Shown: positions 10,754 through 57,395, counted from the first letter of the stretch. The stretch is 59,659 nt of DNA from an uncultured Parcubacteria group bacterium (GCA_903911245.1 CAIWCR010000010.1:1-59659), one strand, 5' to 3'. Notes: generated from the sequence alone by a model not told the origin. Translations and numbers: made by a program.

Positions 10754-10767
10754 TGTATTAATAAATT

Positions 10768-10789
10768 AAAAACGGCCCCTCCAAAGGCC
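10768..10789 (-). promoter_or_regulatory. possible attenuator hairpin in the rplJ leader
   Basis: The minus strand reads GGCCTT-TGGA-GGGGCC followed by GTTTTT, ending about 15 nt before the rplJ ATG. A second hairpin (ATAAACAAAagaTTTTGTTTAT) lies just upstream. Both are weak stems. Confidence 0.3.
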
Positions 10790-40258: not shown

Positions 40259-40333
40259 TCCGCGATAGCTCAATGGTAGAGCGGCGCCCTGTTAAGGCGA
40301 TGGTTCCTGGTTCGAGTCCAGGTCGCGGAGCCA
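40259..40333 (+). tRNA. tRNA-Asn (anticodon GUU), with encoded CCA
   Basis: TCCGCGA-TA-GCTC-AATGGTA-GAGC-G-GCGCC-CTGTTAA-GGCGA-TGGTT-CCTGG-TTCGAGT-CCAGG-TCGCGGA-G-CCA. There is one G:A mismatch at the top of the anticodon stem. Confidence 0.85.
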
Positions 40334-41926
40334 TATGGGATGAGCAGAGCCAAAAGCTCTGCTTTTCTCTTTATCTACGGGCTCTTTTGGCGGTTCGAAA
40401 GTATTTTTATCGGTGTTTTTCTCGGATAAGGCTTCATTTACGGTGCCGAGTATGAGATCAAAGGGTTTTTGGTATGAAATCTCGATATTCTTTCCGTTTA
40501 TCTTTGGGTTCGAAAATAAAAATGAGAATAGCATTCGTTTCTGTTCGACTGTTCGTCTTGGGTTCAAATAAATCTCCCTAGCTTGTTTTGCGATCTCAAG
40601 CACTGTTACGCCCATCTCAAAATATTTAAGGCTGGCGTTACGATGTTTATTCAAACTATCAAGTACGCAGTCCTGCTCTTTCTTGTATTGCTCGAGTTTT
40701 TTGTTGTAAAACTCGGCACTGATCCGGCAATCGATCTTATCGTCATAAAGTTTATCTATTCGTTGAGTCGCTATCTGATATTGTCGTTCGAGTTCGGCCG
40801 AGGACTTTTCTCTAAAAGCTATTTCATCGGCATGACCCTCTTTTAAAGCTTCCTGAAGCCACGAGAGCATGCGTTCTACCCGTTCGTCTTTATGAGTTAC
40901 AGCCATTATGGAGTCGGCTATTTGAATATCTATATTCTCTTGTTTAACCCAATCTCGTTGCGAGCAGTTCTTATAATGGTTGCAGTGGCCATACCAGTGA
41001 CCTTTTTGTATCTCCCACGTTATCGTGCCTCCGCATTCGCTACAGCGGAATACGCTTTTAAATAGCGAATTGTGTTTACGTGCTCTCGGTGCCCCATAGC
41101 TATGCAGTTTATCTTGCACTTGCTGGAATAGTTCTTTAGTTATAAGCGGTTCGTGATTGCCTTTGGTGATCTGATTTTTCCACCGGTTCATTCCGTAATA
41201 AAATGGATCGCCGATAAGCTGATGAATTCTGGCGTGGCTTACTTTGTGATCAGTTCGGGACCGGAGGCCTTTGTCGTACATCGTATTACAGAGGGTCTTG
41301 GTTGAATGTTGGCCTGAGGCATAAAGCTCAAACATCTTTTTTATAAGCGGTGCTTTTTCCTCATCCGGTACGTGAATTTTGTGTCCCTTGTCACCGATTG
41401 TTTTATATCCAAGCGGTGGCTTGGTCGGAAGCCAGCCTTGCGATAGCTTTTCTTTTTGTCCCTTCTTTACGTTTTCAGAAAGGAGTCGGATGTAGTATTC
41501 GGCCGTGGCTACTTTTACTCGCCACATAAACCATTCGTGTGATTTAGAGTCTTTATGAAGTGTACAGCTTTCTTTGACCAGATGAATGGTATGCCTTTCA
41601 TCGGCTAGTATCCATTCATCGATTACCGGCACGTCAGAAAAGTTACGGGTTAAACGGTCTGTAGTTTCCACGAAGACCGTATTGATTTTGGCCTTGGTCA
41701 CGTATTCCATCATTTCGTGGAATATTTTTCTTTGGATTTTTCCGGCCGCCGATTCTTGAATGGCAAAAACTTTTACAAGCTCATAGCCGTTTCGATCGGC
41801 GAAGTCCCGCAAAAGTTTCTCTTGAGCTGGCAGTGAGTAGCCAGTGTCCTCTTGATCTTTGGAGGAGACACGGGCATATCCTACGGCTCGCATCGATTCA
41901 TTTTCGTTTTGCATTGTCATAGTCAT
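40292..41926 (-). CDS. large serine recombinase (integrase)
   Basis: Resolvase catalytic N-terminus AVGYARVSSKDQ, a recombinase domain, a zinc ribbon (CSECGGT...HCNHYKNC) and a coiled coil. The last 14 codons are antisense to tRNA-Asn. Confidence 0.9.
   Translation of the reverse strand: MTMTMQNENESMRAVGYARVSSKDQEDTGYSLPAQEKLLRDFADRNGYELVKVFAIQESAAGKIQRKIFHEMMEYVTKAKINTVFVETTDRLTRNFSDVPVIDEWILADERHTIHLVKESCTLHKDSKSHEWFMWRVKVATAEYYIRLLSENVKKGQKEKLSQGWLPTKPPLGYKTIGDKGHKIHVPDEEKAPLIKKMFELYASGQHSTKTLCNTMYDKGLRSRTDHKVSHARIHQLIGDPFYYGMNRWKNQITKGNHEPLITKELFQQVQDKLHSYGAPRARKHNSLFKSVFRCSECGGTITWEIQKGHWYGHCNHYKNCSQRDWVKQENIDIQIADSIMAVTHKDERVERMLSWLQEALKEGHADEIAFREKSSAELERQYQIATQRIDKLYDDKIDCRISAEFYNKKLEQYKKEQDCVLDSLNKHRNASLKYFEMGVTVLEIAKQAREIYLNPRRTVEQKRMLFSFLFSNPKINGKNIEISYQKPFDLILGTVNEALSEKNTDKNTFEPPKEPVDKEKSRAFGSAHPIWLRDLDSNQEPSP
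40343..40372 (+). terminator. terminator hairpin after tRNA-Asn (antisense to the recombinase 3' end)
   Basis: AGCAGAGC-caaaa-GCTCTGCT followed by TTTCTCTTT. Confidence 0.5.
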
Positions 41927-41986
41927 ATTTATTGTTAATTTTTATAAGGTTCGAAATCGACTTTTGGTCTCAAGACACAACATACG

Positions 41987-42460
41987 CTAATTTTTCGAAC
42001 AAGCTAAGCTCGAGTTGCCCACAGTGGATTTCTGTTGTCTTTTCCTAGCACTTTCCAGTATTCTCGCAATACTGTCGCTATCTCGCCGATAATCGGCGTT
42101 ATCGTAAGGATCATCACTGCCCATGGTTCTTACTGGACCCAGTACATAATCCAAAATAGCTTTAACAGCTCTGAATTTCATGACATCGCTTTTGGCACCC
42201 ATAAGCGAGACCAGAATATTGGCCGCAATTACCGAATGTCTCGCCAGCACGGTATCAGTCTCTTTATCGCGTACACGGTTTCTTTCTTTTTCGTATTGGT
42301 CGTATTCCTCTTTGAGTAAACCGTCAGACCTAAACCACCGTTTTACACTGACATGCGACACTTTAAGCATTCGAGCGATCTCCAAATAAGTAAAATCGCT
42401 ATATTTTAAGCGGATTGCATTCTGATATTTTTCGTTTTTTATATCTACATTTTTAGCCAT
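41987..42460 (-). CDS. HTH DNA-binding protein (element regulator or terminase-small-like)
   Basis: FTYLEIARMLKVSHVSVKRWF helix-turn-helix near the N-terminus. Confidence 0.45.
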   Translation of the reverse strand: MAKNVDIKNEKYQNAIRLKYSDFTYLEIARMLKVSHVSVKRWFRSDGLLKEEYDQYEKERNRVRDKETDTVLARHSVIAANILVSLMGAKSDVMKFRAVKAILDYVLGPVRTMGSDDPYDNADYRRDSDSIARILESARKRQQKSTVGNSSLACSKN

Positions 42461-42547
42461 TTGGGTATCATTTAGTATCTTTTAACGCTTATTTATTTCC
42501 TGTTTTTTGCTCAATTCGTTGCCGTTTACTGCGGTTTCCCATATTTA

Positions 42548-43126
42548 TTAACGTCTTGAATTATCTTTAAGGGTCATCTTTGCAATCAGTCCGGCTTTCA
42601 TCTCGTTTAATTTCTTGATTTGGTTTTGGCCGTTAATTTCTTTATAATTTTCTTTAATTTCTTTTAAACCCTTAACTTCTATATCATCGCCGTCGTATGC
42701 GGTCTGCTTACCTTGCCGTCCGGCTTTTGATGTAGATTGGTTTCCGTTCTGCGTCAGATGTAGGACGGACAGCAAAGTGATCCCTCGGGGCTTGAACTTG
42801 GCGTCCTCGCCCCGGGTTTTAGTGATCGCTATAAATGTCCATTCTTCGAGCTTGTCCAAGCATTTTTTAATCGTCCGCCAATCTTTTAGGCCAGAGTAAA
42901 TCCGAAGCGTCTTATTGGATGCTTCTATGGTTTGACTGGCCTTGTTTGAGGCAATCTCAGTCAGGGCACAATACACATTTCTCAGATTGCGATATGCGTC
43001 ATCGCTCACATACTTATCAATCCATTGCTGTCGCATGTACCGCAAAGCCGGCTTATCTTGATAAGCGAACGGTGCTTCTCGGTAATCTCGGACCTTATGC
43101 TTTTTGTCGTTCTGGTTCATAGTCAT
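42548..43126 (-). CDS. hypothetical protein (possible wHTH replication/initiator-like)
   Basis: 192-aa ORF in the element's minus-strand gene string. No firm motif. Confidence 0.4.
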   Translation of the reverse strand: MTMNQNDKKHKVRDYREAPFAYQDKPALRYMRQQWIDKYVSDDAYRNLRNVYCALTEIASNKASQTIEASNKTLRIYSGLKDWRTIKKCLDKLEEWTFIAITKTRGEDAKFKPRGITLLSVLHLTQNGNQSTSKAGRQGKQTAYDGDDIEVKGLKEIKENYKEINGQNQIKKLNEMKAGLIAKMTLKDNSRR

Positions 43127-43304
43127 GTTGCACTATTGGCACTTCAGCTTTTTCGTTATCCTCGCAGTAGCACTGCAATAGCGTGTCGTAATAACCGAGA
43201 AGATTAAAAGCGACCTCATGTAATTCCTGATCGCTTACTTCTTGGCCAAAGTCCTCTTTAAGAATCACGCGGAGTTTCTCCAGCGTTTCTGGTTTTAATT
43301 TCAC
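43095..43304 (-). CDS. small hypothetical protein
   Basis: 69 aa. It overlaps the downstream ORF start by 32 nt and sits in the same gene string. Confidence 0.35.
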   Translation of the reverse strand: MKLKPETLEKLRVILKEDFGQEVSDQELHEVAFNLLGYYDTLLQCYCEDNEKAEVPIVQHDYEPERQKA

Positions 43305-43309
43305 AGGTC

Positions 43310-43552
43310 TTAGTTCTCGGCATAAATCCGTACTTTGACCTGTTTAATCTGATTGAAGAAGGCTTGGGGTTCGACTTGAAGTTCACGACTCCAATATCGC
43401 TTCACCAGAGAATCCAGTTCCGGGCTCTTGCCGAAGCAAAAGAGCACCTTGTACGGATTTCCTCGATCCACGACCTCAAGAGAATCAGGAATGAATAATA
43501 AAAGCACCGCAACCAATGCCAGGTCAGCGGTTTTATAAAATTGATTGTCCAT
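43310..43552 (-). CDS. small hypothetical protein
   Basis: 80 aa. Its stop lies 5 nt upstream of the next ORF start. Confidence 0.4.
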   Translation of the reverse strand: MDNQFYKTADLALVAVLLLFIPDSLEVVDRGNPYKVLFCFGKSPELDSLVKRYWSRELQVEPQAFFNQIKQVKVRIYAEN

Positions 43553-43652
43553 ATGTTGGCATTTTCATAATCATTAACTATTTCCTCTCACACATATTCA
43601 GTTTGCCAGTTGGTGTCTGTCTCTTGGAATAATGTTCGGGTGTAGTTAGACA

Positions 43653-43679
43653 ACAAAAAAGAGCCCTATTTCAGGCTCT
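43653..43679 (-). terminator. Rho-independent terminator
   Basis: The minus strand reads AGAGCC-tgaaatag-GGCTCT followed by TTTTTTG. It is nested inside the 10-bp inverted repeat GGTGTAGTTA/TAACTACACC. Confidence 0.55.
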
Positions 43680-43713
43680 CTTATCGAAGTTATTAACTAC
43701 ACCGACTATTACG

Positions 43714-44406
43714 CTACAGTATTTTTATTTTGTACTGCGGATTCAGCTTGTAGCCACTGCCATCTCGACCGCAAATCAAATCTGATATGCCGATTCGATC
43801 ATTGGTTTTCCTATTTATTTCCAATTTGGAATTTCTGATAGCTTGATTGGTGGTGCCGACCATTTCGGCCAGCTCGGCCGTCTTGATATAGCCCTTGGCC
43901 GAGCATAAAACTTTTATCAGTTTCTCTCGCATTTTCTCTTTACTCATCGGGTAACATTTTTTATTGTCTGAATCTAAATAAAGATCACCGTCCGGAGACA
44001 AACAGAGTAGCGTTTGTTTTGCTTTATTCACTTTCTGTTTGGACCGTATCTTTTGGCTTTGTTCGTAAAAACCTTTAGCCATTTCTCTGCCGATTTGAAC
44101 AAGATCTCGCTTGCTTAATTCTTGCAGTTCGTTTTTTAAACCAGCGATTGTCTTGTCGGTTTCTTTTTTGTAATTATCAAATTTAGCCTCGGTTTTGTTT
44201 AATCTATCTTTTAATTCGGTAAATTCGGCACTGTATTTATTTACAATCTCGTCCGGATTCTGAACGCCATTATTTTGTAGTGCTGTTCTTGCGGTGTCCT
44301 TTATGACACCCATTGAAAAATGGTAAACGGGACCGACTCCCACAGTCCGTTTTATGTTGAATTTATGTTTGGTGGCCAAAGAGGCCTTTTTCATTTTCAT
44401 AATCAT
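43714..44406 (-). CDS. coiled-coil protein with a C-terminal HTH
   Basis: A central K/E-rich coiled coil, then a C-terminal TAELAEMVGTTNQAIRNSKLEINRK helix-turn-helix. Confidence 0.45.
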   Translation of the reverse strand: MIMKMKKASLATKHKFNIKRTVGVGPVYHFSMGVIKDTARTALQNNGVQNPDEIVNKYSAEFTELKDRLNKTEAKFDNYKKETDKTIAGLKNELQELSKRDLVQIGREMAKGFYEQSQKIRSKQKVNKAKQTLLCLSPDGDLYLDSDNKKCYPMSKEKMREKLIKVLCSAKGYIKTAELAEMVGTTNQAIRNSKLEINRKTNDRIGISDLICGRDGSGYKLNPQYKIKIL

Positions 44407-44591
44407 ATTTTTTAGTGAATTGAACCCATTTTATGCCCTCCATTCACTAATCTTTGGATGCTTGCGGACATAATCGCATATAGTTGGTTATATCGATCAA
44501 TTGAGTCCACAAGTGTATTATGACAAAAGACGGCGATTTTGACAATGAAAAGCAGAAGGGGTAAAATGATACCAACGACTAATATAATTTT

Positions 44592-44786
44592 ATGAACGAA
44601 ATTGAAAAACTTTTCACGATAGAGGAAATTGCCAAAATTTTGAGAGTACATACTCGTACCGTTACCCGCTATATTGAGTCGGGCAGATTAAAAGCATCCA
44701 AGCTTGGTGTTTGGCGGATTAAGCAATCCGATCTCAATGCTTTTTTGGATGAAACGAGTAATGTAAAAAATAAAAAGAAGAATTAG
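44592..44786 (+). CDS. excisionase-family (MerR-like) HTH protein; possibly Xis and/or the R-M controller
   Basis: FTIEEIAKILRVHTRTVTRYIESGRLKASKLGVWRIKQSDLNAFL matches the excisionase-family DNA-binding domain. Its stop is 3 nt before the first methyltransferase gene. Confidence 0.7.
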   Translation: MNEIEKLFTIEEIAKILRVHTRTVTRYIESGRLKASKLGVWRIKQSDLNAFLDETSNVKNKKKN

Positions 44787-44789
44787 ATT

Positions 44790-46607
44790 ATGCCAAAAAT
44801 AAAAGATATTCCAAAAATAGATCGTCCTCGAGAGAGGTTCCTCAAAAAAGGATCAGAAGCACTTTCAAAGAGTGATCTTTTGGCGATTCTTTTAGGTAGT
44901 GGCATTAAAGGTAAAAATGTTAGACAACTATCAGAGCAGATTATTAAAAAGTTTGGCAAGAATTTTTTAAACATCAAAGTTGAAGACCTTTTGGAAGTCT
45001 CCGGTATTGGCCAAGCTAAAGCCCTGCAGATGGTTTCCGCTATTTCGTTAGTAAAAAGATTTTATGATGAAGAAAAGGGTGGTGACACAATCATCAAAAA
45101 TCAACAGGACGTTTTATCTTTAACATACGACCTACGAGACAAGAAAAAGGAATATTTGGTTTGTCTTTATCTTAACGCTAGAAATGGTTTGATAAAGAAA
45201 GAAATCGTAAGCGTAGGCTTGTTAGATAAAAGTTTAATACATCCGAGAGAAATTTTTCATCCGGCCGTAGAGCTTAACGCCGCCAGTATCATTTTAATTC
45301 ACAATCACCCCTCAGGAGACTCATCTCCCAGCGTAAAGGATATTGAGATAGTGAAAAAAATATCCCAAGCTGGAGAAATAATGGGTATTTCTGTAATTGA
45401 TTTTATTATTACGGCTGAAAACGGAAGCTGTAGTTTTTTTGAAAAATTAAGCAAGGATAAAAAGACCATTGATTATGTTGCCGACGGCATTCAAGGGACT
45501 TTATTCAATCTTTTAGAGCTTGAAAAGCCTGCGTATGAAATAAGTGCCGAGAAAGTTCAGGAAAATTACTTCTATATCCCACAGGTAAAAAAGAACTATC
45601 TGCAATTACAAAATCGCCGATATATTGGTAGCAAGCATAAGCTTATCGAATGGATATTTTCTGTAATCAATAAAGAATGTGAAAAAGGTAATTCCTTTGC
45701 CGATATATTTGCTGGGACCGGGGTGGTTTCGGCTGTCGCGGCTAGGCATTATGATGAGATTATACTCAACGACTTTTTGCATTCTAATTACGCTATTTAC
45801 CAAGCTTTTTTTGGCAATGGTGAATGGGATAAAAATAAGATCGAAAACATCATAAAGGATTACAACAATATTGACGGTAATGACTTAGAGAATAATTATT
45901 TTTCCACAAATTTTGGTGGTAAATATTTCAGCCACAACTCAGCTAAGATCATAGGATTTATTCGAGAGAATGTTGAGGAAAATAGAAATAATTTAACTGA
46001 TAAGGAATACTATATCCTTATTGCTTCCTTACTATATTCCATTGATAAGGTTGCTAATACCGTTGGTCATTATGATGCGTATTTTAAGAAGGAACATGTT
46101 GAGGATGGATTTTTTATGAGACCCATTGATCCGATCGAGGTAAAAAATGTCACAATTTTTAAAGAGGATACCAATCTTTTGGCCAAAAAAATCAAAGCCG
46201 ATATTGTTTATATTGATCCACCTTATAATTCAAGACAATATAGTCGTTTCTACCATGTCTTAGAAACTTTAACGAAATGGGATAAGCCAGAATTATTTGG
46301 TACCGCCCTTAAGCCACAAGAGGAAAATATGAGTGATTATTGTCGAGTTCAAGCAAAGGATAGACTTGCTGAGTTGGTTAATGATTTGAACGCCAAGTAT
46401 TTGGTTGTGTCTTATAACAATACTTACGACTCAAAAAGCAATTCATCCAAAAATAAAATCACCCTGCAAGAGATTAAAGATATTTTGTCGGCGAAAGGAA
46501 AAACTAAAGTGTTTGAAAAAGATTATAGACACTTTAATGCCGGTAATACCGATTTCAAAAATCACAAGGAGTATTTATTCGTAACCACCGTAAACCATGC
46601 AAAATAA
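44790..46607 (+). CDS. fusion protein: N-terminal RadC-like JAB/MPN domain plus C-terminal D12-class N6-adenine DNA methyltransferase
   Basis: Residues 1 to about 215 carry DRPRERF and an intact JAMM motif (HNHPSGDSSPSVKD). Residues from about 270 carry RRYIGSKHKLIEWI, FAGTGVVS (motif I) and IVYIDPPYNS (motif IV). Confidence 0.8.
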   Translation: MPKIKDIPKIDRPRERFLKKGSEALSKSDLLAILLGSGIKGKNVRQLSEQIIKKFGKNFLNIKVEDLLEVSGIGQAKALQMVSAISLVKRFYDEEKGGDTIIKNQQDVLSLTYDLRDKKKEYLVCLYLNARNGLIKKEIVSVGLLDKSLIHPREIFHPAVELNAASIILIHNHPSGDSSPSVKDIEIVKKISQAGEIMGISVIDFIITAENGSCSFFEKLSKDKKTIDYVADGIQGTLFNLLELEKPAYEISAEKVQENYFYIPQVKKNYLQLQNRRYIGSKHKLIEWIFSVINKECEKGNSFADIFAGTGVVSAVAARHYDEIILNDFLHSNYAIYQAFFGNGEWDKNKIENIIKDYNNIDGNDLENNYFSTNFGGKYFSHNSAKIIGFIRENVEENRNNLTDKEYYILIASLLYSIDKVANTVGHYDAYFKKEHVEDGFFMRPIDPIEVKNVTIFKEDTNLLAKKIKADIVYIDPPYNSRQYSRFYHVLETLTKWDKPELFGTALKPQEENMSDYCRVQAKDRLAELVNDLNAKYLVVSYNNTYDSKSNSSKNKITLQEIKDILSAKGKTKVFEKDYRHFNAGNTDFKNHKEYLFVTTVNHAK

Positions 46608-47502
46608 AATCAAAAGATCTCCGCTGTTTTACGTAGGAGATAAATACAAATTAATGAAGCAGTTGGTTGATTTATTTCCTCAGGAAGTAGATACCTTCTA
46701 CGAGCCATTTGTTGGTGGTGGCACGGTCTTTTTGAATATCAATGCAAATAAATATTATTTAAACGACAACGATAAAAATCTTATCGATATACATAAATTC
46801 CTTGTCGGCAGTTCGGGTAACCCAGATATATTTTTTAAGAATGTTGAAAAGATAATAAAGAAATATCACCTATCCCGATCGTACAAAGAGGATATAATTC
46901 CAGCTTCTCTAAAAAAGGAATGGAAGAAAACCTATTTTGCTAGATTCAATAAAGAGGGCTATGAAAAATTGAGAGTTTGTGTAAACAAGCACATAAAGAA
47001 TGATCCTCTGATTCTGTATATCTTACTTATTTATGGTTTCAATCGAATGTTGCGGTTTAATGGTGGTGGTAAATTTAATCTGCCGGTCGGTAATGTTGAT
47101 TTCAATAAAAATGTTGTTAACGCTCTGAATGGTTATTTTGATTTTGTGCAGGATAAAAAGATGACTTTAAGCTCAAAGGACTTTAGAGCTTATTTTGCTA
47201 ATCGGAAATATTCCAAGAACGATTTTGTTTATCTGGACCCACCCTATCTAATAACGGCAAGCGAATATAACAAGCGGTGGGATCAAAAAGCCGAAGCCGA
47301 CTTACTGAAGATGATTGATGATTTGGATAAGAAAGGCGTAAAGTTTGCCCTATCGAATGTAACCCACTATAACGGAAGCAAAAATGATTTACTGATTGAT
47401 TGGATGAAAAAATACAAGACGCATAAAATAGAGAGCAATTATATCAGCTATCACAATAACGGTAAGAAACAGATCAAGGAAGTGTTAATTACCAATTATT
47501 AA
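46597..47502 (+). CDS. D12-class (Dam/DpnA-like) N6-adenine DNA methyltransferase
   Basis: FYVGDKYKL, EPFVGGGTVFLN (motif I), FVYLDPPYL (motif IV) and FALSN. The start overlaps the upstream stop by 11 nt. Confidence 0.85.
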   Translation: MQNKIKRSPLFYVGDKYKLMKQLVDLFPQEVDTFYEPFVGGGTVFLNINANKYYLNDNDKNLIDIHKFLVGSSGNPDIFFKNVEKIIKKYHLSRSYKEDIIPASLKKEWKKTYFARFNKEGYEKLRVCVNKHIKNDPLILYILLIYGFNRMLRFNGGGKFNLPVGNVDFNKNVVNALNGYFDFVQDKKMTLSSKDFRAYFANRKYSKNDFVYLDPPYLITASEYNKRWDQKAEADLLKMIDDLDKKGVKFALSNVTHYNGSKNDLLIDWMKKYKTHKIESNYISYHNNGKKQIKEVLITNY

Positions 47503-47506
47503 ATAT

Positions 47507-49042
47507 ATGAAAACAAAAACAAGAGAATCAGAATATAAACCATTATTATTTACTACTACACTTAGAAACCCAGAAAGGCTTAAGTGGTTTTTGGGAGTAC
47601 TTAAAGATTACAACGGAAAAGTGCTTGACGATCAGTTAGCTGAGGAGATCTCCGGTGAAGTTATTCGGTTTGGATTATATAAGCCAACTAACATAAGTGC
47701 CGTTGTAAAGAATAAAATTGAAACAAAAGAGCCATTGTCCGATTCTGAAGTGAAAAAGGTTCTTGAGGATAATCCACAAAATCATAAAGAAGCCGGTTTC
47801 AGTAAGGGCTGGGCTTCTCGGTTTGATACTTGGTTTAAGATTGCCAAAGAGCTTGGTTTTGTTTATTACAAAAACGGAGAAAAGATAAGATTTTCTGATA
47901 TCGGATTAAAATTGGTTGATAACGAACATCCAGAATTTGAACAGCAAGCTTTTTTGAATGCCTTTGTAAAATATCAAAGTAACAGTCCATTTAGACGCGT
48001 ACTTAATGAAAACGCACCGCTGATTTTATTATTGAGCGTGATCAATAAAATAAATGCTGATAAGGATTTAAACGGGACCGGAATTTCAAAATTAGAATTA
48101 CCTTTGGTTATATTCTGGAAAGATAACGACGCAGAAAAACTATACAAACTTATAAAGAAAATTAGAAAAGAACACGGCTATACTCCGAGCTGGGAGGTTA
48201 TTGTTGATATTTGTGTTAATCAGATCATGGCCGGTGATTTCAAGAAGTTCAATCCGAAGTCAATAATGGTTGACTATCCCGATGAATTCATCAGAAAGAT
48301 GAGACTGACTGGATTGATCTCGCTAAGAGGTGCCGGACGTTTTATTGATATAAACAGAAACGAACAAACAAAGGTTGATTATGCTTTAGCCACTTATTCT
48401 GATTATAAAAAATACGCGACAGAAGAAGAATATTTTAAGTACATGTCGGCCGTGGATGAAAATCTCATCTCGTTTGTTGCCAAGCCAGTAAGTGTTGGCG
48501 AGAGGGATGCCTTTTTGGCCAAGTGGGTCGGTATTTATTCTTGGAATAAAATTAAGGACGAGATGCTGAATCTGGCCAAGAAAAGATTGACTAAGGATGA
48601 TGTTTTGAAATATCTATCAAATCCAGTCAGATTAGAGTTCCTTGTCTCTTTGGCAATTAAATCTAAGTTTCCAAATGTTAAGGTAATACCAAATTATCCT
48701 TATGATGACGAAGGGCTCCCAACATCAACAGCCGGAGGTGTTGGAGATAAAGGTGATATTGAATGCTTTGAGGATGTTAAGGGAATACTGGTCGAAGTCA
48801 CTATGTCAGAGGGTCGCATGCAAACCATGATGGAAGTTTGGCCGATCTCAAGACATTTAGGAGAATTCCAAAAAGGCACAAAAGATTCGATGTGCTATTT
48901 CGTGGCCCCTAGCATATTTAAGGACTCCGTAATGCAAATAAATTACGTTAAGGAAAAAGAGAATCTTTCGATCTTGCCAAAAACAATCGAGGAATTTTTG
49001 ACTCATATAGAAAGCAGAGATGTTTTGTACTCTGTGTCCTAA
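47507..49042 (+). CDS. type IIS restriction endonuclease, AlwI/BstNBI/MlyI/PleI-like
   Basis: It follows two adenine MTase genes. The N-terminal TTLRNPERL block and the putative PD-(D/E)xK block GDIECFEDVKGILVEVTMSEGRMQTMMEVWPISRH resemble the BstNBI family as I recall it. This needs HMM confirmation. Confidence 0.6.
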   Translation: MKTKTRESEYKPLLFTTTLRNPERLKWFLGVLKDYNGKVLDDQLAEEISGEVIRFGLYKPTNISAVVKNKIETKEPLSDSEVKKVLEDNPQNHKEAGFSKGWASRFDTWFKIAKELGFVYYKNGEKIRFSDIGLKLVDNEHPEFEQQAFLNAFVKYQSNSPFRRVLNENAPLILLLSVINKINADKDLNGTGISKLELPLVIFWKDNDAEKLYKLIKKIRKEHGYTPSWEVIVDICVNQIMAGDFKKFNPKSIMVDYPDEFIRKMRLTGLISLRGAGRFIDINRNEQTKVDYALATYSDYKKYATEEEYFKYMSAVDENLISFVAKPVSVGERDAFLAKWVGIYSWNKIKDEMLNLAKKRLTKDDVLKYLSNPVRLEFLVSLAIKSKFPNVKVIPNYPYDDEGLPTSTAGGVGDKGDIECFEDVKGILVEVTMSEGRMQTMMEVWPISRHLGEFQKGTKDSMCYFVAPSIFKDSVMQINYVKEKENLSILPKTIEEFLTHIESRDVLYSVS

Positions 49043-49068
49043 ACGGATTCGTGACCAATTAAAGTTAT

Positions 49069-52000
49069 ATGGGAATATTCAGATACAAAATTTTAACGGC
49101 GAAAATAAAAACTCTTTTTAAGAGGAAAGATCGATCGCTTATAGACGTAGCCAACAGAGAGAAGAAGGTCAATAAACAATTAAAACCGATCCTTATTAAA
49201 GGGCACGATCCTTTATGGATGCCTTCTGTTTTATCTTTCTTAAAAATATTTTTTACGATGTTATTCTTTTGGATAATATCGCATCCGGAATACTTTTATA
49301 GATACATCCTTTCACCGATAAATTCTTTTCTCTCAAAAATTTCTATTTATAGTCATGTTGTTTCTTATTTAGGCAGGTTTGTCCCTAGTATTTCCATACC
49401 AAATATAAGTGCTAATTTTGATCCAGTTGCTATTCATACCGGTATAGGCGCAGTTTTAATTGGATTGGCATTCTTTGTTGCACAAAGTTTAGCCGACAAA
49501 AATGATCCAGAAAAAGGCAGGGTTTTATTGTATAAGAGTTGGTTTTTCCCTTTGTTAATGGCAGAAGTGATGGCCTTCTTTTTCTTTATCGGCAACACAA
49601 ATATTTTAGGTTTTATTCCAGTGATTGCCATTGCCCTATGGACTATGTTTTCACTAGGTAGTGTGATCGATATTCTTGTAAGAGAGTACAAGATGGAAGA
49701 AGCGAAAAAGGAGGTGCTTCTAAGTGTCACTAAGAAAAATTTTATTCGAATCTTAGACAAAGAAATTACCCAGAGGATTGGTAATAATTTCCTCTATAAA
49801 AAATACGAAAACAGTGGAGTACTAAACGCTAACCCATTCGGATTTTGGGGTAATAAAAAAGAAGTCATTGCTATAAAATCGCAAAAGAGCGGAATAATAC
49901 TTGATATAAAAATTCACGATCTCGAAAAATTAGTAACGATGTTAAGCAGGGTGGTAAATGAGAATACTCCTGCCGAAAATGCTGACCATACCAGTATCGG
50001 AAGCACCAAAGCCAAACAGGAACCAATTTGTTATTTGAAGCCACTGCTCGGATACAAAATAGAAGCAGGAGAAGCACTGTTCGAAATAAAGAAAAGCGTT
50101 GCTGACCGTATAGATATTAAGAGGCTGGCAAAAATTGCTCGTGATGTGTTTGTAATCAAAAAAGATGACTCAGAAACTGAGGCGCGCATTGAAATTTCAA
50201 AATTGAAGGATAGGTGCATACTAGCCATTAACAATCAACAAACTGGAGACCTAGAAAAAATAATCAAGCTGTATGTAGATTTGGTCAAGGAATTTTTTAA
50301 ATATTTCAGCTTGTATCACGGTGGTTGTTTTTCATCAGAACAAGCCAAACAAGAGAGAGGATCATTTTTTGATAAATTGAAGCCATTAGATTGGTTGTCA
50401 AAAGATATCTGGGAAATTTTTGAGAGAGGGATAAATTCGGAAGATATAAATATTATTAGAGATGTTGCCTATCTGCCGATTTTATTAGTCCAACAGGCTA
50501 TTGAAAGTAAGGATCATCTAATTTTCCAAGAATTCATATACTTTTCGCGAGTTCTCTACGAGAGAGCCTATGAACTCTCAGAGAAAGGAAAAAAGAAGGA
50601 AGCGGATATAATGTTCGATCGAACATGGCGCTACTTAAAAGAACTCTCCACATATCATCTTGAGTCAAAGCTAAAAGAGGAAGATTATCCCGAACAAGAT
50701 TTTAAGGATTACTACATACAGATACTTAAGACATTTCAGGAATTATTAAAATCGTCTTTTGATAAAAAGGACTTACATAATTTTGAGAAATTCCTATCAG
50801 TTGTCTCGGATTTGTTTAATCGTCTAGATAGACCGTATTCCGGTTTTACGGATACAGAAAAACTCTATGATTTTCTCTCTGACAAAAGACTAGAGATGCT
50901 TTTTGGCCTCGCAAGTTGGATATTGTCGATACTTAAAAACACCAAAGACTCTGAGACTAAAAAGTTCTACGACGCTGTGCAGAGTAGATTGCCAACGAAA
51001 ATTGAGGAATTCACTGAAGTATTTTTACGCGCTCACGATTTTAAGACTGAAGATTACTGGGGATGGGACTGGTGGGAATCAAGGCCGGACGAGGGAGTTC
51101 ACACTATCAACGTGCTTGAAAAGCTTGAGCAGTTCTTTGTGATTAGGTTGCTTTCATTATTACGCTCAAGGAACGATGCTGATATAGAAAAAATAAACCT
51201 GCCTCATAACAGGGACTTAGCATTTCTTGCTGAAGGGACAAGAGATGCAATGAAAACTATTGATGACATAGAAAAAAATCCAGATAATTGGAAGTTTGCT
51301 TTAGACGACGAATCTATGAAAAAGTGCTCGTCATTGCGAGGGTTATTTAAAAGAGCTCACGAGCAACAAGAACAAGATGATCTAAAAAGAAAGCGAGAAG
51401 CAAGTATTTCGAAAGTTAAGGTTGAAAAATTTAAGGAATCTTTTATTGAAAATTATGAACAAAGTCATCCGATAAAAAAGCTATTCAAAAACTTGAATCT
51501 CTTTTCGGATAAGACGGCTAAAAAAGCCAAGCCAGAAATAAAAAAGATGGGGGTTAATACGATGTTTGATAAGGCCGCCTTTTTTGGCGAAGATGTGGCC
51601 TGGCATGTTCATTACGTAGGTATTGATGAGGCTTTTGGATTTGGCAGGAGCATGGCTTATGGTGAGAACGATCAGGTCTTGGAAGAAATCGCAAACAAGG
51701 CAACAGTAATAACAAAAGATAAATTTGAGAGTACGCTCGGCGAAATAAAAGTATCGAATATAGTCCTTATTGCTACGAATCATGCAATATGGAGATTCTT
51801 TGAGAGAGCGGATACCAATTGGATACCGAAATGGCACAGAGAATTTCCTAAGGAGTTTTCTGATCACATGATCGATGGAGTATATAAATTTAAAGACAAG
51901 CTAATACCCGTTTATCAGTTATTTACTCCGAAAGCTGAGCATTCGGATATTTTCATTCTTGATAAAGCTAAAATTGGAAAATTTATACAATATTCTGCTC

Positions 52001-52257
52001 TCGATGAGAATGACAAGCCAGACTTGGCCTACAAGGGGTTCCTGATAGATGTTCAGGAATTTATTCCAAATTCTGATTTGGTTAATGAATTTCTTGCAAA
52101 ACCGCCACAATGGCTAGCTGACGTTGGTACCAAAGACAAACAGATTGAGCACCTGCAAGAACGTGTGCTGATTCATGTTTTTGAAAAATACGAATTTCAG
52201 ATGAACGATACTTTCTATGGGTATTTACTCCACACTGACGACAAAGACGAGGAATAA
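49069..52257 (+). CDS. 1062-aa protein with a 4-TM N-terminus and an ~850-aa helical domain; function unknown
   Basis: Long uninterrupted ORF starting 26 nt after the REase stop. TM helices lie within the first ~205 aa. No catalytic motif is recognisable by eye, and there is no Walker A. Confidence 0.6.
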   Translation: MGIFRYKILTAKIKTLFKRKDRSLIDVANREKKVNKQLKPILIKGHDPLWMPSVLSFLKIFFTMLFFWIISHPEYFYRYILSPINSFLSKISIYSHVVSYLGRFVPSISIPNISANFDPVAIHTGIGAVLIGLAFFVAQSLADKNDPEKGRVLLYKSWFFPLLMAEVMAFFFFIGNTNILGFIPVIAIALWTMFSLGSVIDILVREYKMEEAKKEVLLSVTKKNFIRILDKEITQRIGNNFLYKKYENSGVLNANPFGFWGNKKEVIAIKSQKSGIILDIKIHDLEKLVTMLSRVVNENTPAENADHTSIGSTKAKQEPICYLKPLLGYKIEAGEALFEIKKSVADRIDIKRLAKIARDVFVIKKDDSETEARIEISKLKDRCILAINNQQTGDLEKIIKLYVDLVKEFFKYFSLYHGGCFSSEQAKQERGSFFDKLKPLDWLSKDIWEIFERGINSEDINIIRDVAYLPILLVQQAIESKDHLIFQEFIYFSRVLYERAYELSEKGKKKEADIMFDRTWRYLKELSTYHLESKLKEEDYPEQDFKDYYIQILKTFQELLKSSFDKKDLHNFEKFLSVVSDLFNRLDRPYSGFTDTEKLYDFLSDKRLEMLFGLASWILSILKNTKDSETKKFYDAVQSRLPTKIEEFTEVFLRAHDFKTEDYWGWDWWESRPDEGVHTINVLEKLEQFFVIRLLSLLRSRNDADIEKINLPHNRDLAFLAEGTRDAMKTIDDIEKNPDNWKFALDDESMKKCSSLRGLFKRAHEQQEQDDLKRKREASISKVKVEKFKESFIENYEQSHPIKKLFKNLNLFSDKTAKKAKPEIKKMGVNTMFDKAAFFGEDVAWHVHYVGIDEAFGFGRSMAYGENDQVLEEIANKATVITKDKFESTLGEIKVSNIVLIATNHAIWRFFERADTNWIPKWHREFPKEFSDHMIDGVYKFKDKLIPVYQLFTPKAEHSDIFILDKAKIGKFIQYSALDENDKPDLAYKGFLIDVQEFIPNSDLVNEFLAKPPQWLADVGTKDKQIEHLQERVLIHVFEKYEFQMNDTFYGYLLHTDDKDEE

Positions 52258-52263
52258 AATATT

Positions 52264-52761
52264 ATGAAAAATGATTGGTATAAAAAGGCTCTGCTAAAGA
52301 ACGCAAAGGAGATAGTAAGCTCTGGTACGACTTACGTGATCTTATCTTTGGTGCTTTTACTCTGGCATTTTGCTTTGGGAATCAAATTCCAATGGCAGAG
52401 TATCAGTCCATTATCTGCACCGAGTATATTTGTTCGGGTGTTTTATAGTGCTTTTACTTTTTGCACGCTCGGCTTAATTCTATACGTGATCAAATTTTAT
52501 AAAGTGCTCCACGATATCGTTGTTAAGGCATTTGGCATGTGGGAACTCTACAACTTAATAAAGGCGGTACTCTGGCTATTTCTGATGTGGATTTCATATG
52601 CCTATCTCGTGCCGTGGCTGTTCAATGTCTTAAATGCTGGCGTGTCTGTATTGTTTAATATTGCCAATCTCGTGTTGTATGCATTACCACCGGTCGGCAT
52701 TACATTAATTTTAAGCATCATCTATCTACTCTCTAGTAAAAAATTAAAACATGAACACTGA
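52264..52761 (+). CDS. 165-aa four-TM membrane protein; function unknown
   Basis: It starts 6 nt after the upstream stop and has four hydrophobic helices. Confidence 0.5.
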   Translation: MKNDWYKKALLKNAKEIVSSGTTYVILSLVLLLWHFALGIKFQWQSISPLSAPSIFVRVFYSAFTFCTLGLILYVIKFYKVLHDIVVKAFGMWELYNLIKAVLWLFLMWISYAYLVPWLFNVLNAGVSVLFNIANLVLYALPPVGITLILSIIYLLSSKKLKHEH

Positions 52762-52927
52762 CGATCCAATTAAAGACGAACCAGCCGAGGAAGCTCCCGA
52801 CGAGGAAGTTGTCGAGCTTATGGAAGCCCACGATCTCGATCAGGACACGGCCGAGCGTGTGCAGGAGATCATGGAAGATTTAGGTGTGGACGAGGACGAC
52901 GCTGTCGAGCTCGAGGAACTTCTGTAG
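52751..52927 (+). CDS. 58-aa hyperacidic peptide (below the ORF-track cutoff)
   Basis: The ATG at 52751 overlaps the upstream stop by 11 nt, and the TAG is at 52925-52927. The sequence is MNTDDPIKDEPAEEAPDEEVVELMEAHDLDQDTAERVQEIMEDLGVDEDDAVELEELL, with 25 of 58 residues D or E. It is GC-richer than the neighbouring genes. Confidence 0.4.
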   Translation: MNTDDPIKDEPAEEAPDEEVVELMEAHDLDQDTAERVQEIMEDLGVDEDDAVELEELL

Positions 52928-52981
52928 TTAAGCAAATATGACTCGTTGTAATTTGCTTAACATTGCTTAAGTTAAGCAAAT
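52928..52981. repeat. cluster of four TTAAGCAA(A)T motifs in the order direct, inverted, inverted, direct
   Basis: Copies at 52928-52937 (direct), 52951-52960 (inverted), 52962-52970 (inverted) and 52972-52981 (direct). They can form a 10-bp hairpin plus a near-perfect palindrome. The cluster starts immediately after the last operon stop codon. Confidence 0.5.
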
Positions 52982-53206
52982 CGCATTACGGTCGTAAAAA
53001 TGGTTTACATTCGGTTCTGGGTTTCTAATCGGTGCAAATCTCTAACTCCAGCTCAACCGCTCGCCACAGGGGCAAACAAGTGGCAAATTGGGGTTATCCC
53101 TCTTTGCATTCAGCCAGCAGTTGGTTCATTTGGGAGAGAACGACAGTCGGATACTTGTATTCATCCGCCCAGTCAAAAGTTCGAAACTTGCTGAGTAGGG
53201 CGAGCG

Positions 53207-54729: not shown

Positions 54730-55911
54730 TTAGATTGGATAACGAATAATAACAATACCTGAGCCTCCAGCGCCGCCATACCTAGTTGCGCCAGCGCCGC
54801 CAGCAGCGCCGCCTCCGCCACCACTGCCGGAATTAGCTAAAGCATCGGTCGCATTCGATGAAGTACTTCCACCAGTGCCGCCGCCACTACTACCCAACCC
54901 TTTTTGAGTTATTAATTCTCCACCGCCGCCACCACCGCCTGCATAATACACCGAAGAACCTGAAATTGAATACGATAATCCGACTCCGCCATTGCCTCCA
55001 ATTGCACCTCCTGATCCACCCCCATAAGTACCACTTCCACTTGATCCAACAGTACCTGCGCCACCGCCGCCAGAACCGGGACCATTTGTTACATTGTATG
55101 CACCCCCATTAGAACCCTGACCGGTCGTAGGAGAGCCGCCAGTAGACGCAGAACCACCAGTGCCGCCACCAGAACCACCACTACCTCCATTACTTGAATA
55201 GCCACCACCATATCCTCCACCAATGGCAGTCAATGTACCAAAAATAGAATTGCTTCCCGGGTTTCCATTACTATTACTTCCAGTCTGATGCGCTGCCCCA
55301 CCAGCGCCAATCGTTACTGTAACTTGACCCGTACTAACTGCGTAAGAGGGATAATAAATTACACCACCGCCACCACCACCGCCGCCATGGCCCTCTCCTC
55401 CTCCACCACCGCCACCAACAACAAGAACTTCTACGTTACCGCTGCCAGTAACAGTGAATGTTCCGCTTGTAGTAAAAGTATGAATACGATATCCGCCAAT
55501 GTCAGTAACGGTTCCTCCCGTAGCAGATAAACTACTAATACCAAACCATGATGTCCCATTATAAAATTCAACCCTTGAGGTATCAGTATTGAATCGCATC
55601 ATACCCGTAGTGGGACTCGATGGACGTTGCGCAGTAGTACCAACCGGCATTTTCATACCGGTAGTACCACCCACGTCTAATGTTATAGCAGGATTTGATG
55701 TTCCTATTCCGACATTTCCCGCAGTGTAATACATACTCGTACCACTCAAAAGCCAGAATATCGGATTTCCGTTCGGTGGTTGATTGGATCCAGGACTTGA
55801 GAATGCAAAAACCGCAATCATACAAGCGCTTGAGCCTATGAGGATACTGAGGAAAAGGAGTTTGAAATTCTTGAGGATTTTCATATTTAAATTAATTAAT
55901 TGCAAGCACAA
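54730..55911 (-). CDS. secreted tail-fibre-like protein with a long glycine-rich C-terminal domain
   Basis: Signal peptide. The N-terminal cassette SPGSNQPPNGNPIFWLLSGTSMYYTAGNVGIGTSNP is shared with the upstream paralogue. A TAQRPSSPTTGMMRFNTDTSRVEFYNGTSW motif, recalled from phage fibre proteins, is present. G-runs follow, ending GGSGIVIIRYPI. Confidence 0.6.
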   Translation of the reverse strand: MCLQLINLNMKILKNFKLLFLSILIGSSACMIAVFAFSSPGSNQPPNGNPIFWLLSGTSMYYTAGNVGIGTSNPAITLDVGGTTGMKMPVGTTAQRPSSPTTGMMRFNTDTSRVEFYNGTSWFGISSLSATGGTVTDIGGYRIHTFTTSGTFTVTGSGNVEVLVVGGGGGGGEGHGGGGGGGGVIYYPSYAVSTGQVTVTIGAGGAAHQTGSNSNGNPGSNSIFGTLTAIGGGYGGGYSSNGGSGGSGGGTGGSASTGGSPTTGQGSNGGAYNVTNGPGSGGGGAGTVGSSGSGTYGGGSGGAIGGNGGVGLSYSISGSSVYYAGGGGGGGELITQKGLGSSGGGTGGSTSSNATDALANSGSGGGGGAAGGAGATRYGGAGGSGIVIIRYPI

Positions 55912-57395
55912 ACTCCAGAACTATCTACCGCAGTCGAACAATATCCTAGCGTTTTTCCATCAGGCTTCCAACATGTTATATGATTCGCAAAACCACCTGC
56001 ATCAATCATAACATTTCCGTTTATTTCAAGCGAGATATTCGAATCCATCGTTCCGATACCAATATTGCCAATATTGTTTATTTTCATGAACGGCGTTGAT
56101 GTATCGACTGTCGGGTCAATGGAGATGCCGCTATAGAGAGGATTTACTCTATTATTAAGATCTTGTAATCCCTCCACCAATAAAGGCGTTAGGCGACCGT
56201 AATCAACTGACCATGGGTTTTTCTTTGGATCGTCACCACCTACTGTAACTGCCTCGGGATAAATCTTGTAAAGATCCTGAGCGACAAAACCTTGTACTGT
56301 TTTCTTTTGAGGGTCGGCAATAAAATTGAAATCATTAACAGGAATAGACATAAGTGCGCCTAATCCCCGATTCGTTGATACTATATTTTCTTTGAGGCGA
56401 CGATCTGAGGAAGTATTGAAAGTGGTGTAGGTATTATAATTACAAATAGAACCCACATTAGTACCAGCTGCATTCCAAAAACCAGCGGCACATGCGCCAT
56501 CCCCTTCGGGAAGATAATCTATTGCATATTCAGTTCCACCACCATGATATCGTACGTCGATAGCGGTAGTCCATCCATCATTAGAATAAGTAGATCCGGT
56601 CACCTGGGGACCTTTCAAGACGATAAATCCATTTAAAACAGAAGTTCCTTTTACGCTTAGATTTGCCACCGGCGTTGTCGTACCAATACCAACATTGCCA
56701 CTAGGTTGGAGAATAAGATTACCCCATGCAGCGCCTCCTCCAGTAAGTGAGCCTATCATACTGTAAGTCGTGCCCGTCGGTGCACCAAATTCTTGTACAA
56801 GCATCGTACCCGCGCTAGTGGCAACATAGTCATTAGTTGCAGTCATAAAAGGCTGTACGCCACCTATAATAGAAAGCCTCCTTCCTGGACTTGTCGTTCC
56901 AATTCCGACATAGCCATTGTTTAATATTCTCATTTGCTCTGTCATTTGAGCAGGATCATAATAATTTCCACCTGATGTAAGAAAAGTTAAGATGCCACCA
57001 TTAACATCCTTGTTTCCGCTAATAGCTTGAATTCCAGCCGCTGCTTTCTCGCCCGCTCCTGAATCGCTAATCATAAAGGCCAACATGTTTGTTTTATTAG
57101 TAGCAGCTCCTGTTGTTCCTCCAAAAAGACGCATCGGAACAGCGGTGTCTGAATTTTGTCGTACTTCTAACGTTGATGTTGGACTATTCGTTCCTATCCC
57201 TACGTTTCCTCCTGAATAATACATAGAGGTTCCATTCAGAAGCCAGAAGGTTGGATTTCCATTGGGAGGTTGATTCGATCCAGGACTTGAAAATGCAAAG
57301 ATGCTTATGGCGCAAGCAAAAAGGCCTATGGCAATACTAAGGAATAAAACTTTGAGATTTGAAGAGATGAAAAATCTTGCTGATTTCAGATTCAT
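55896..57395 (-). CDS. secreted tail-fibre-like protein with a Peptidase_S74 intramolecular chaperone domain
   Basis: Signal peptide and the same N-terminal cassette. Repeated GNVGIGT(T/N)xP units. The SSDRRLKENI...VNDFNF...GFVAQDL block is typical of the endosialidase/tail-fibre autoproteolytic chaperone domain. Confidence 0.65.
   Translation of the reverse strand: MNLKSARFFISSNLKVLFLSIAIGLFACAISIFAFSSPGSNQPPNGNPTFWLLNGTSMYYSGGNVGIGTNSPTSTLEVRQNSDTAVPMRLFGGTTGAATNKTNMLAFMISDSGAGEKAAAGIQAISGNKDVNGGILTFLTSGGNYYDPAQMTEQMRILNNGYVGIGTTSPGRRLSIIGGVQPFMTATNDYVATSAGTMLVQEFGAPTGTTYSMIGSLTGGGAAWGNLILQPSGNVGIGTTTPVANLSVKGTSVLNGFIVLKGPQVTGSTYSNDGWTTAIDVRYHGGGTEYAIDYLPEGDGACAAGFWNAAGTNVGSICNYNTYTTFNTSSDRRLKENIVSTNRGLGALMSIPVNDFNFIADPQKKTVQGFVAQDLYKIYPEAVTVGGDDPKKNPWSVDYGRLTPLLVEGLQDLNNRVNPLYSGISIDPTVDTSTPFMKINNIGNIGIGTMDSNISLEINGNVMIDAGGFANHITCWKPDGKTLGYCSTAVDSSGVCACN

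Follow-up and report, generated by a model that had tools for sequence, protein, structure and literature searches.

A membrane-anchored protein family with a predicted capsid-like domain, linked to restriction-modification operons and carried as cargo by a Patescibacteria integrative element

Do three genes that trail a type IIS restriction-modification (R-M) operon in an uncultured Parcubacteria group bacterium make up one defence system, or do they belong to different parts of the mobile element on which they reside? The genes lie in a stretch of 59,659 nucleotides (nt) (GCA_903911245.1, CAIWCR010000010.1:1-59659; the window hereafter means this whole stretch) and encode a protein of 1062 amino acids (aa), a 165-aa protein, each with four predicted transmembrane (TM) helices, and a 58-aa acidic peptide. 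A first-pass annotation of this DNA had read them as a single three-gene membrane module. The evidence assembled here leans towards a composite region, in which the large gene is an R-M-linked membrane defence accessory carried as cargo and the two small genes are genes of the element itself.

The arrangement in the window makes it clear why the three genes could be taken as a unit. Between 44592 and 52927, seven plus-strand open reading frames (ORFs) lie in a row with gaps of +3, -11, +4, +26, +6 and -11 nt, and no convincing terminator was found between the seven genes. The best sigma-70-like site of the region is located just 5' of the first ORF of the run. The genes upstream of the trio appear to encode an AlwI-type IIS R-M system, consisting of a RE_AlwI endonuclease (Pfam RE_AlwI, E 4e-44; PADLOC REase_II, E 2e-130) and two MethyltransfD12 proteins. 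When recomputed, the coordinates of the three ORFs and their -11 to +26 nt packing agreed with the first-pass annotation, and the placement of the trio in an operon with type IIS R-M genes on an integrative element is supported by the spacing, by the Pfam and PADLOC matches and by the attachment (att) sites described below.

The distribution of the genes in other genomes tells against a single module. By tblastn over all fetched loci, only the window and its closest relatives (loci L005/6, L043 and L052), all with at least 78% identity, have the small genes behind the large one. About 50 other non-redundant large-gene loci lack both small genes, including L020, at 67% identity. They are also missing from L045 despite 7 kilobases (kb) of downstream sequence, and L045 and L043 share at least 90% identity in the large gene. 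Elsewhere the small genes follow unrelated cargo. In L009-11, type I R-M, YgjP, HNH_5 and EMARD_N genes precede a 170-aa version of the 165-aa gene; in L012-15, DUF2254 and two unknown genes precede a 166-aa version; and in L016-19, type I R-M, YgjP, KAP_NTPase and a 195-aa gene are followed by a 170-aa gene and then by the 58-aa peptide, which in L016 is identical to that of the window at 54/58 residues. L009-L015 carry the 165-aa gene without the 58-aa gene, and in L116-L123 the peptide comes after DUF2130 and an unrelated 79-aa gene, without the 165-aa gene, with the same recombinase and backbone family adjoining. In blastn comparisons of the window with these elements, the DNA becomes similar where the 165-aa gene starts (window 52258-52270).

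Because the small genes trail unrelated cargo and accompany only the closest relatives of the large gene, we conclude that they flank a cargo slot and are conserved within a family of Patescibacteria elements. The 165-aa gene is the 3' edge of this variable slot and no dedicated partner of the large protein, the 58-aa gene closes the transcription unit of the cargo strand and is conserved there, and the large gene is one among several interchangeable cargo genes. The contents of the slot differ across L009-L019 and L116-L123 as listed above, and AbiEii is another example of the cargo found there. The 79-aa gene of L116 was considered as a truncated homologue of the 165-aa gene and rejected, similarity being absent.

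Both small genes are widespread. The 58-aa ORF is a real gene, with relatives of 54-60 aa at 70-93% identity in 119 database clusters. It encodes 25 Asp or Glu and 2 Lys or Arg residues, and its G+C content is 0.54 compared to 0.34-0.38 in the preceding genes; the hyperacidity, the higher G+C content and the 11-nt overlap with the preceding gene had all been reported in the first-pass annotation and hold on recomputation. The 165-aa protein has more than 165 clusters, with ~67-91% identity among the 120 matches listed, and all of the relatives with a name among the matches listed are Patescibacteria/Paceibacteria. Scans with Pfam, NCBIfam, PADLOC and PHROGs gave no significant match for either protein, a match of the peptide to ANTAR (E 0.028) was dismissed as noise, and scans of viral contigs for both families searched, the large one included, were empty.

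What the small genes do for the element is a separate question from that of the large protein. They may have an element-related role, such as addiction, establishment or anti-restriction, rather than serving as effector partners. Tentatively, and as a prospect well short of even, they could be an addiction pair of membrane toxin and acidic antitoxin, or the peptide could be an anti-restriction DNA mimic that aids establishment. Such roles would suit two overlapping small genes at the end of an element, the extreme acidity of the peptide (25/58 Asp/Glu) and strong conservation across elements with differing cargo; the family scans above, however, returned no toxin-antitoxin, anti-restriction or other family. 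Judged from the gene distribution, an obligate type II toxin-antitoxin pair is disfavoured because the 165-aa gene occurs alone in L009-L015 and the 58-aa gene alone in L116-L123. The idea that the peptide is a recombination directionality factor is weakened by L009 and L010, which lack the peptide but have a recombinase of the same family.

The large gene keeps different company. Large-gene loci came from exact look-up and from genome and metagenome collections scanned with pattern seeds; thinning them so that no two large proteins were 90% or more identical left 54. The nearest upstream ORF is on the same strand in 44/54 loci and within 100 nt in 32/54. By Pfam, these nearest upstream genes encode N6_Mtase (6), GmrSD_N (5), HNH (5), Eco57I (4), N6_N4_Mtase (3), ResIII (3), Type_ISP_C (2) and, once each, RE_HpaII, RE_AlwI, RE_TdeIII, EcoRI_methylase, YgjP and Methylase_S. 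The second and third upstream genes encode N6_N4_Mtase (10), EcoRI_methylase (5), ResIII (4), Methylase_S (4), C5 DNA_methylase (3), HSDR_N (3), Eco57I (3), DpnII (2) and D12 (2). Per-locus labelling with iterated phmmer placed an R-M component no more than three genes away in at least 33/54 loci, and direct scans added two more (L044 and L099), for at least 35/54, a raw count rather than an enrichment over matched random genes.

Among the loci with R-M genes, these lie upstream of the large gene in all but one (L038). They span type I (L005, L007, L045), type II, type IIS, type IIG/ISP (L020, L085, L099) and type III systems, as well as methyltransferase (MTase) genes with GmrSD-HNH pairs (L055, L065, L072, L076, with an EcoRI-like MTase), and include N6_N4 MTase with ResIII (L003, L021), another AlwI system (L044), a DpnII-like system (L034) and C5 MTases (L025, L062, L071). 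All-against-all clustering of the neighbours found no recurrent downstream partner of the large gene. Its neighbourhoods, on mobile or variable DNA, mark the large gene as characteristically the last member of R-M operons, whatever their type, and as probably co-transcribed with them. The guilt-by-association argument for defence made in the first-pass annotation is thus strong for the large protein, whereas a three-gene unit is not supported.

One of these neighbourhoods recurs in a fixed form. In L055, L065 (=L028), L072, L076, L075 and L029, the genes for an EcoRI-like adenine methylase and, behind it, a GmrSD_N-HNH protein form a pair directly 5' of the large gene, and the same combination is found near the 165-aa gene in L012. 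It looks like a distinct R-M-like module.

The large family itself is sizeable and has gone without a name. A word-indexed search found 73 full-length homologues of the 1062-aa protein, and with an exhaustive profile search the family came to 1,525 representatives (clusters at 50% identity) at E<=1e-3, 722 of them at E<=1e-30. Among the 150 representatives listed, almost all are full-length, mostly of ~1,000-1,200 aa. The family occurs in groups of the Candidate Phyla Radiation, Spirochaetes, Gamma- and Alphaproteobacteria, Verrucomicrobia, Fusobacteriales, Firmicutes (Clostridium, Exiguobacterium, Jeotgalibaca) and Cyanobacteria (a Pseudanabaena plasmid), among others, and this spread over distant phyla suggests that it has been moved by horizontal transfer. 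Neither the GenBank phages nor IMG/VR yielded a relative. The 1062-aa protein has no accepted match in Pfam, NCBIfam, PADLOC, PHROGs or a PDB sequence search; PADLOC-DB v2 gave 0 matches at E<=1 for all three proteins of the trio, and Pfam at E<=1 revealed no recurrent family in 36 members of the large family. These family and PDB searches bear out the earlier description of the large protein as an orphan with no Walker A, nuclease or protease motif, and no P-loop NTPase domain, of KAP type or other, was detected in it by Pfam or NCBIfam. DUF2214, the NCBI label of one homologue (P0071), is unsupported, as it is absent among the matches listed (25 of 36 families), P0071 having been scanned. 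A SipD match at E ~0.006 in the PDB sequence-profile search was rejected as coiled-coil noise.

We next consider the architecture of the large protein. AlphaFold, given an alignment of 72 sequences, produced a full-length model (predicted local distance difference test score (pLDDT) 84.9, predicted template modelling score (pTM) 0.69) that begins with a basic tail and a four-helix membrane region, followed by a long helix, a small juxtamembrane alpha/beta domain, an all-alpha solenoid and a C-terminal alpha/beta domain (Table 1). The four hydrophobic helices that had been picked out near the N-terminus in the first-pass annotation are helices in the model. Conservation is uneven along the chain. 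TM2-TM4 have a mean pairwise identity of 0.53, and four polar residues in them are near-invariant (H123, Q139, E166 and N178). Intermediate values are seen in the solenoid (0.44-0.46) and the C-terminal domain (0.41). TM1, the loop that follows it and the juxtamembrane domain vary most (0.25-0.28; juxtamembrane domain 0.26), with a hypervariable, low-confidence loop inside the juxtamembrane domain at residues 289-319. The charge distribution along the sequence suggests an N-in/C-in topology with ~850 aa in the cytoplasm.

Searched as a whole chain with Foldseek, the model gave only generic ARM/importin/designed-repeat helical matches at template modelling scores (TM-scores) of 0.1-0.3, so that the structural comparison proposed in the first-pass annotation was uninformative at that level. 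Searching domain by domain revealed a likeness that is absent from that account. A separate model of residues 801-1062 (pLDDT 86.2, pTM 0.80) was matched in the PDB exclusively to HK97-fold major capsid proteins and encapsulins among the top 50, 26 of them with E<1e-3 and with TM-scores up to 0.48; these include phages DEV, NF5, N4, T4, T5 and Bxb1, P4 and SaPI procapsids and several encapsulins. In BFVD, each named match in the top 50 is a capsid protein (best E 2.5e-6, TM-score 0.51). Overall, the matches to the capsid/encapsulin fold have a probability of ~1 and TM-scores of 0.35-0.51. The predicted C-terminal domain thus resembles the HK97 capsid/encapsulin fold, a claim of likeness in fold and not of homology. 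No sequence match to capsids or encapsulins was found in the 36 members scanned with Pfam or in the PDB profile search, and no consistent PHROG was found in 21 of the domains. The neighbouring genes are R-M genes rather than a virion module or encapsulin cargo. Within the domain, G828, D834, K835, G859, G865 and E866 are near-invariant.

One distant relative stands apart. A 1021-aa protein encoded on Pseudanabaena galeata plasmid pPg_05 (L042, 116719-119784) adjoins PIN-domain proteins, not R-M genes, and tblastn aligned only its C-terminal, HK97-like part, at 29% identity.

Turning to the element, the sequence indicates that the region is a ~12.9-kb large-serine-recombinase integrative element (~40328-53205) inserted at the 3' end of a tRNA-Asn gene. 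The mobile element recognised in the first-pass annotation is thereby confirmed and sharpened to a serine-recombinase element with GAGC cores. This 4-nt core is common to both ends of the element. In L009 and L010, blastn aligns the right-end sequence of the window (52951-53205) fused directly to the left-end sequence (40328 onward), giving an attP-like junction that reads ...GAGTAGGGCGAGC/CATATGGG..., where the slash marks the point of fusion; in the window, attL reads ...GGTCGCGGAGC/CATATGGG... and attR reads ...GAGTAGGGCGAGC/GACTGAAAAAC... in the junction alignment. The junctions through GAGC in these two loci and at the window ends therefore set the length of the element. No long direct repeats were found as att sites, and the boundaries come from the comparison with L009 and L010 instead. 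Its recombinase domains, the short shared core and the recoverable attP form are all those of a large-serine-recombinase element. The three genes are located at the integrase-distal end.

The minus-strand recombinase gene extends into the tRNA-Asn gene. Joining the element ends in silico lengthens the recombinase from 544 to 568 aa, and the tail restored at the C-terminus (ALLSKFRTFDWADEYKYPTVVL...) has its homologue at the end of the 571-aa L010 enzyme. This ~35-aa tail is encoded at the right end of the element (53095-53205, minus strand), which accounts for the conservation of the right end; Rfam recognised only tRNAs and an L10 leader in the window, and the conserved non-coding right end corresponds to no known RNA. 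The recombinase gene spans attP, and integration swaps the last ~35 residues for 11 read from the tRNA-Asn sequence. Because these tail residues are swapped on integration, the enzyme may be altered by the integration state. The G+C content of the cargo genes is 0.34-0.38, compared to 0.41-0.44 in the element backbone and 0.42-0.43 in the host flank.

Table 1. Features of the element, its gene run and the 1062-aa protein in the window.
Feature	Residues	Position	Strand	Basis or remark
tRNA-Asn (GTT), integration target		40259-40333	+	carries attL core GAGC, 40328-40331
Large serine recombinase, 544 aa integrated		40292-41926	-	Resolvase, Recombinase and Zn_ribbon_recom domains
Candidate operon promoter, TTGACA-17-TAAAAT		44539-44567	+	11/12 sigma-70-like match; consensus match only
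HTH_17 regulator and type IIS R-M genes		44592-49042	+	Pfam, PADLOC; directly 5' of 1062-aa gene
RadC/JAB-D12 MTase fusion		44790-46607	+	Pfam
Second D12 MTase		46597-47502	+	Pfam
AlwI-family restriction endonuclease		47507-49042	+	Pfam, PADLOC
1062-aa ORF		49069-52257	+	ORF call; membrane protein of a family typically last in R-M operons
Basic N-tail	1-52			AlphaFold model
N-terminal membrane region, four TM helices	53-204	49225-49680	+	model and conservation
TM1	53-71			variable
Loop of ~50 aa	72-119			variable
TM2-TM4	120-204			most conserved
Long helix	206-246			AlphaFold model
Juxtamembrane small alpha/beta domain	247-367	49807-50169	+	least conserved cytoplasmic part
All-alpha solenoid	368-810	50170-51498	+	AlphaFold model
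C-terminal alpha/beta domain, predicted HK97-like	811-1058	51499-52242	+	domain model, Foldseek
165-aa ORF		52264-52761	+	ORF call; four-TM protein
58-aa ORF		52751-52927	+	ORF call; hyperacidic peptide
Element right end		52928-53205	-	conserved with sister elements; attR core GAGC, 53202-53205

Several further observations concern the element family and its surroundings. L009 and L010 are seemingly two assemblies of one ~950-kb Paceibacteria genome and are identical until 72 nt past the attP-like junction (positions 10712-10783 onward). Beyond this point, L010 continues into recombinase and backbone, and L009 into a BglII-like protein, a LexA-MTase and a Cap4-nuclease/NACHT protein. This divergence suggests tandem or alternative elements, or assembly through an excised form. 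A 69-aa backbone ORF of the window (43095-43304, minus strand) resembles the N-terminus of a 208-aa protein in L016 (9677-10303), which sits just 3' of the 58-aa gene; because the two lie at different positions, backbone gene order differs between elements. Outside the element, two adjoining large secreted-looking proteins with Gly-rich repeats are encoded at 54730-57395 (minus strand), one of which (55896-57395) contains a '...SSDRRLKENI...' segment that may be akin to the self-cleaving chaperone domain of tail-fibre/endosialidase-like proteins.

How might the large protein act? We propose that it is a single-gene, membrane-anchored defence accessory, co-expressed with R-M genes, that backs up restriction. 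The TM2-TM4 bundle with its buried polar residues would be the likely effector, acting as a channel, an ion leak or a membrane perturbation, and the solenoid and HK97-like domain would likely be a regulatory or oligomerisation platform. HK97-fold proteins naturally assemble into capsomers of five or six subunits. Candidate surfaces for specificity or sensing would be the extracytoplasmic loop and the juxtamembrane domain, which are both poorly conserved. A phage that escapes restriction could then cause oligomerisation or opening, leading to collapse of the membrane potential (abortive infection) or to a block in a membrane-associated step. A bolder form of this proposal, which we offer tentatively and hold to be less probable than not by some distance, makes the protein a new class of immune effector, with an exapted HK97 fold, a solenoid and a four-TM region, in which capsomer-like rings beneath the membrane gate a pore or the protein traps phage capsid intermediates, and which has spread horizontally over many phyla as the standard tail gene of every type of R-M operon, adding an inbuilt second layer to restriction.

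A number of points weigh against this interpretation. We infer defence from gene neighbourhood, and family scans found no recognisable enzymatic or nucleotide-binding motif that would point to a sensor. About one third of the loci have no recognisable R-M genes nearby (L001, L002, L022, L027, L035, L039 and L080, for example), the 54 loci come from pattern-seeded scans and are phylogenetically non-independent, and the ORFs in them are simple longest-ORF calls. The likeness of the C-terminal domain to HK97 proteins could be analogy rather than homology, because the TM-scores are modest, the comparison is made with AlphaFold models and there is no sequence signal. As for the small genes, the 165-aa gene is spaced tightly to any upstream cargo, with 4-nt or 11-nt overlaps or gaps of a few nt, and such coupling may allow generic cooperation of the 165-aa protein with different membrane cargo proteins.

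Other readings of the large protein can be set against a role as an R-M-linked accessory. It is improbable, though not far-fetched, that the protein sits in the inner membrane where phage DNA enters and slows or exposes this DNA for cutting by the co-encoded R-M enzymes. The concept is similar to that of superinfection-exclusion proteins or of the membrane-bound SNIPE nuclease, for which one report indicates that a defence can operate from the membrane where injection takes place (10.1101/2025.11.03.685801). The consistent operonic polarity behind R-M genes of every type would fit, and contact with phage ejection proteins could be made through the variable parts, TM1 and the extracytoplasmic loop. 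This reading nevertheless leaves the large conserved cytoplasmic machinery unexplained, Pfam detected no nuclease or DNA-binding domain, and a third or so of the loci lack adjacent R-M genes.

A non-immune role seems to us improbable to the same degree. The gene could be selfish or hitch-hiking cargo, such as a post-segregational stabiliser of R-M genes, or it could serve an unrelated membrane role and merely share islands with R-M. The protein has no known defence domain, and some loci do lie among housekeeping genes (L002 adjoins MutS2 and DUF350, and L030 adjoins DnaE). A same-strand position at a short gap directly behind R-M genes in most loci and in many phyla speaks against it, as does a patchy taxonomic distribution that is typical of defence cargo.

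The HK97 likeness raises the further idea, which we find quite doubtful, that the domain is a decoy. It would bind or co-assemble with the major capsid protein or procapsids of a phage, and tethering to the membrane would poison assembly or trigger the TM effector, by analogy with the capsid-redirecting major capsid protein homologues of satellites. The top structural matches are all capsids, including SaPIbov5 (Ccm-containing), SaPI1 and P4 capsid or procapsid assemblies, and a layer that acts late would complement R-M, which acts early. A surface that co-evolves with diverse capsids would not be expected to be fairly conserved across phyla, as this domain is (0.41), and the PHROG scan found no sequence similarity to phage capsid families. 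Because the domain is conserved, capsomer-style homo-oligomerisation or a fixed regulatory platform is more likely than a decoy that tracks phage capsids.

Least probable, and largely refuted by gene distribution, is a dedicated three-component defence or abortive-infection system in which the 165-aa and 58-aa proteins are small partners of the 1062-aa effector: tight packing with an 11-nt overlap, the recurrence of the trio in L005/6, L043 and partly L052 and the membrane nature of two of the three products speak for it, and the ~50 other loci, L045 among them, that lack the small genes, together with the far wider occurrence of these genes behind unrelated cargo, each also without the other, speak against it.

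The R-M-linked accessory that we favour shares features with several known systems and differs from each. The predicted C-terminal ~250 aa of the large protein have the same overall fold as HK97 capsids and encapsulins, with a beta-hairpin/loop, a long 'spine' helix, a central sheet with helices and long C-terminal strands. Unlike those proteins, the domain is fused behind a four-TM region and a 440-aa solenoid, shows no sequence similarity to them and belongs to a family absent from viral collections; its gene has no portal, terminase, protease or cargo-enzyme neighbours, and nothing indicates that it forms shells. Accessory genes within or behind R-M loci include the PrrC and RloC anticodon nucleases, abortive infection (Abi) genes, RhuM and YgjP. 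As with these genes, the large gene lies inside or at the end of R-M operons and would be a plausible back-up if restriction fails, whereas its product is membrane-anchored, shares no homology with them and has no nuclease or NTPase domain. A specific physical partnership like that of PrrC with EcoprrI is unlikely, because the large gene accompanies all R-M types.

Among membrane defence proteins, the KAP NTPase 'tmn', Kiwa KwaA, Zorya ZorAB and SNIPE likewise combine an inner-membrane location with a large cytoplasmic part, and in sister elements KAP_NTPase fills the same slot as the 1062-aa gene does in the window. The large protein differs from these effectors in having no PADLOC match, P-loop, MotAB-like stator or nuclease domain. 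Variable defence hotspots include those of P2 and P4 and the cargo slots of integrative and conjugative elements and integrative islands. In the element of the window, as in the P2/P4-type hotspots, interchangeable R-M or defence cargo is enclosed by conserved genes, here the recombinase and backbone at one flank and the 165-aa and 58-aa genes at the opposite one; the element differs in its Patescibacteria host, in a large serine recombinase gene that spans attP and in flank genes that encode an uncharacterised four-TM protein and an acidic peptide.

The R-M genes of the window pair RE_AlwI with two D12 adenine MTases, as AlwI-family type IIS systems do. Two methylases are the usual arrangement for an asymmetric recognition site. 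The genes of the window depart from that family in an operon extended by three genes and in the first MTase, which carries an N-terminal UPF0758/RadC-like JAB domain before its D12 domain (Pfam E 6e-36 and 1e-35). Such a fusion is unusual among R-M methylases.

Accessory genes behind R-M systems and variable defence slots in mobile elements were already known; the large family, its capsid-like domain and its linkage to R-M genes of all types appear to be new. A literature search found no relevant paper on homologues of the large protein, on an architecture that joins HK97, membrane and defence features, or on EMARD. The region also carries a caution for guilt-by-association: a gene packed tightly against others in an operon may belong to the element backbone and not to the system beside it. 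If the large gene is a true immune gene, it would represent a widespread family of ~1,500 clusters missed by all current annotation resources, and it would be among the few cellular recruitments of the HK97 capsid fold besides encapsulins. Its placement behind every R-M type suggests a rule of layered defence, with restriction first and a membrane effector second. In Patescibacteria, whose genomes are tiny and whose known defences are few, elements of this kind, which use a serine recombinase, have a defined slot and in the window are inserted at a tRNA gene, show how defence cargo can be swapped, and the slots of sister elements offer a ready catalogue of candidate Patescibacteria defence genes.

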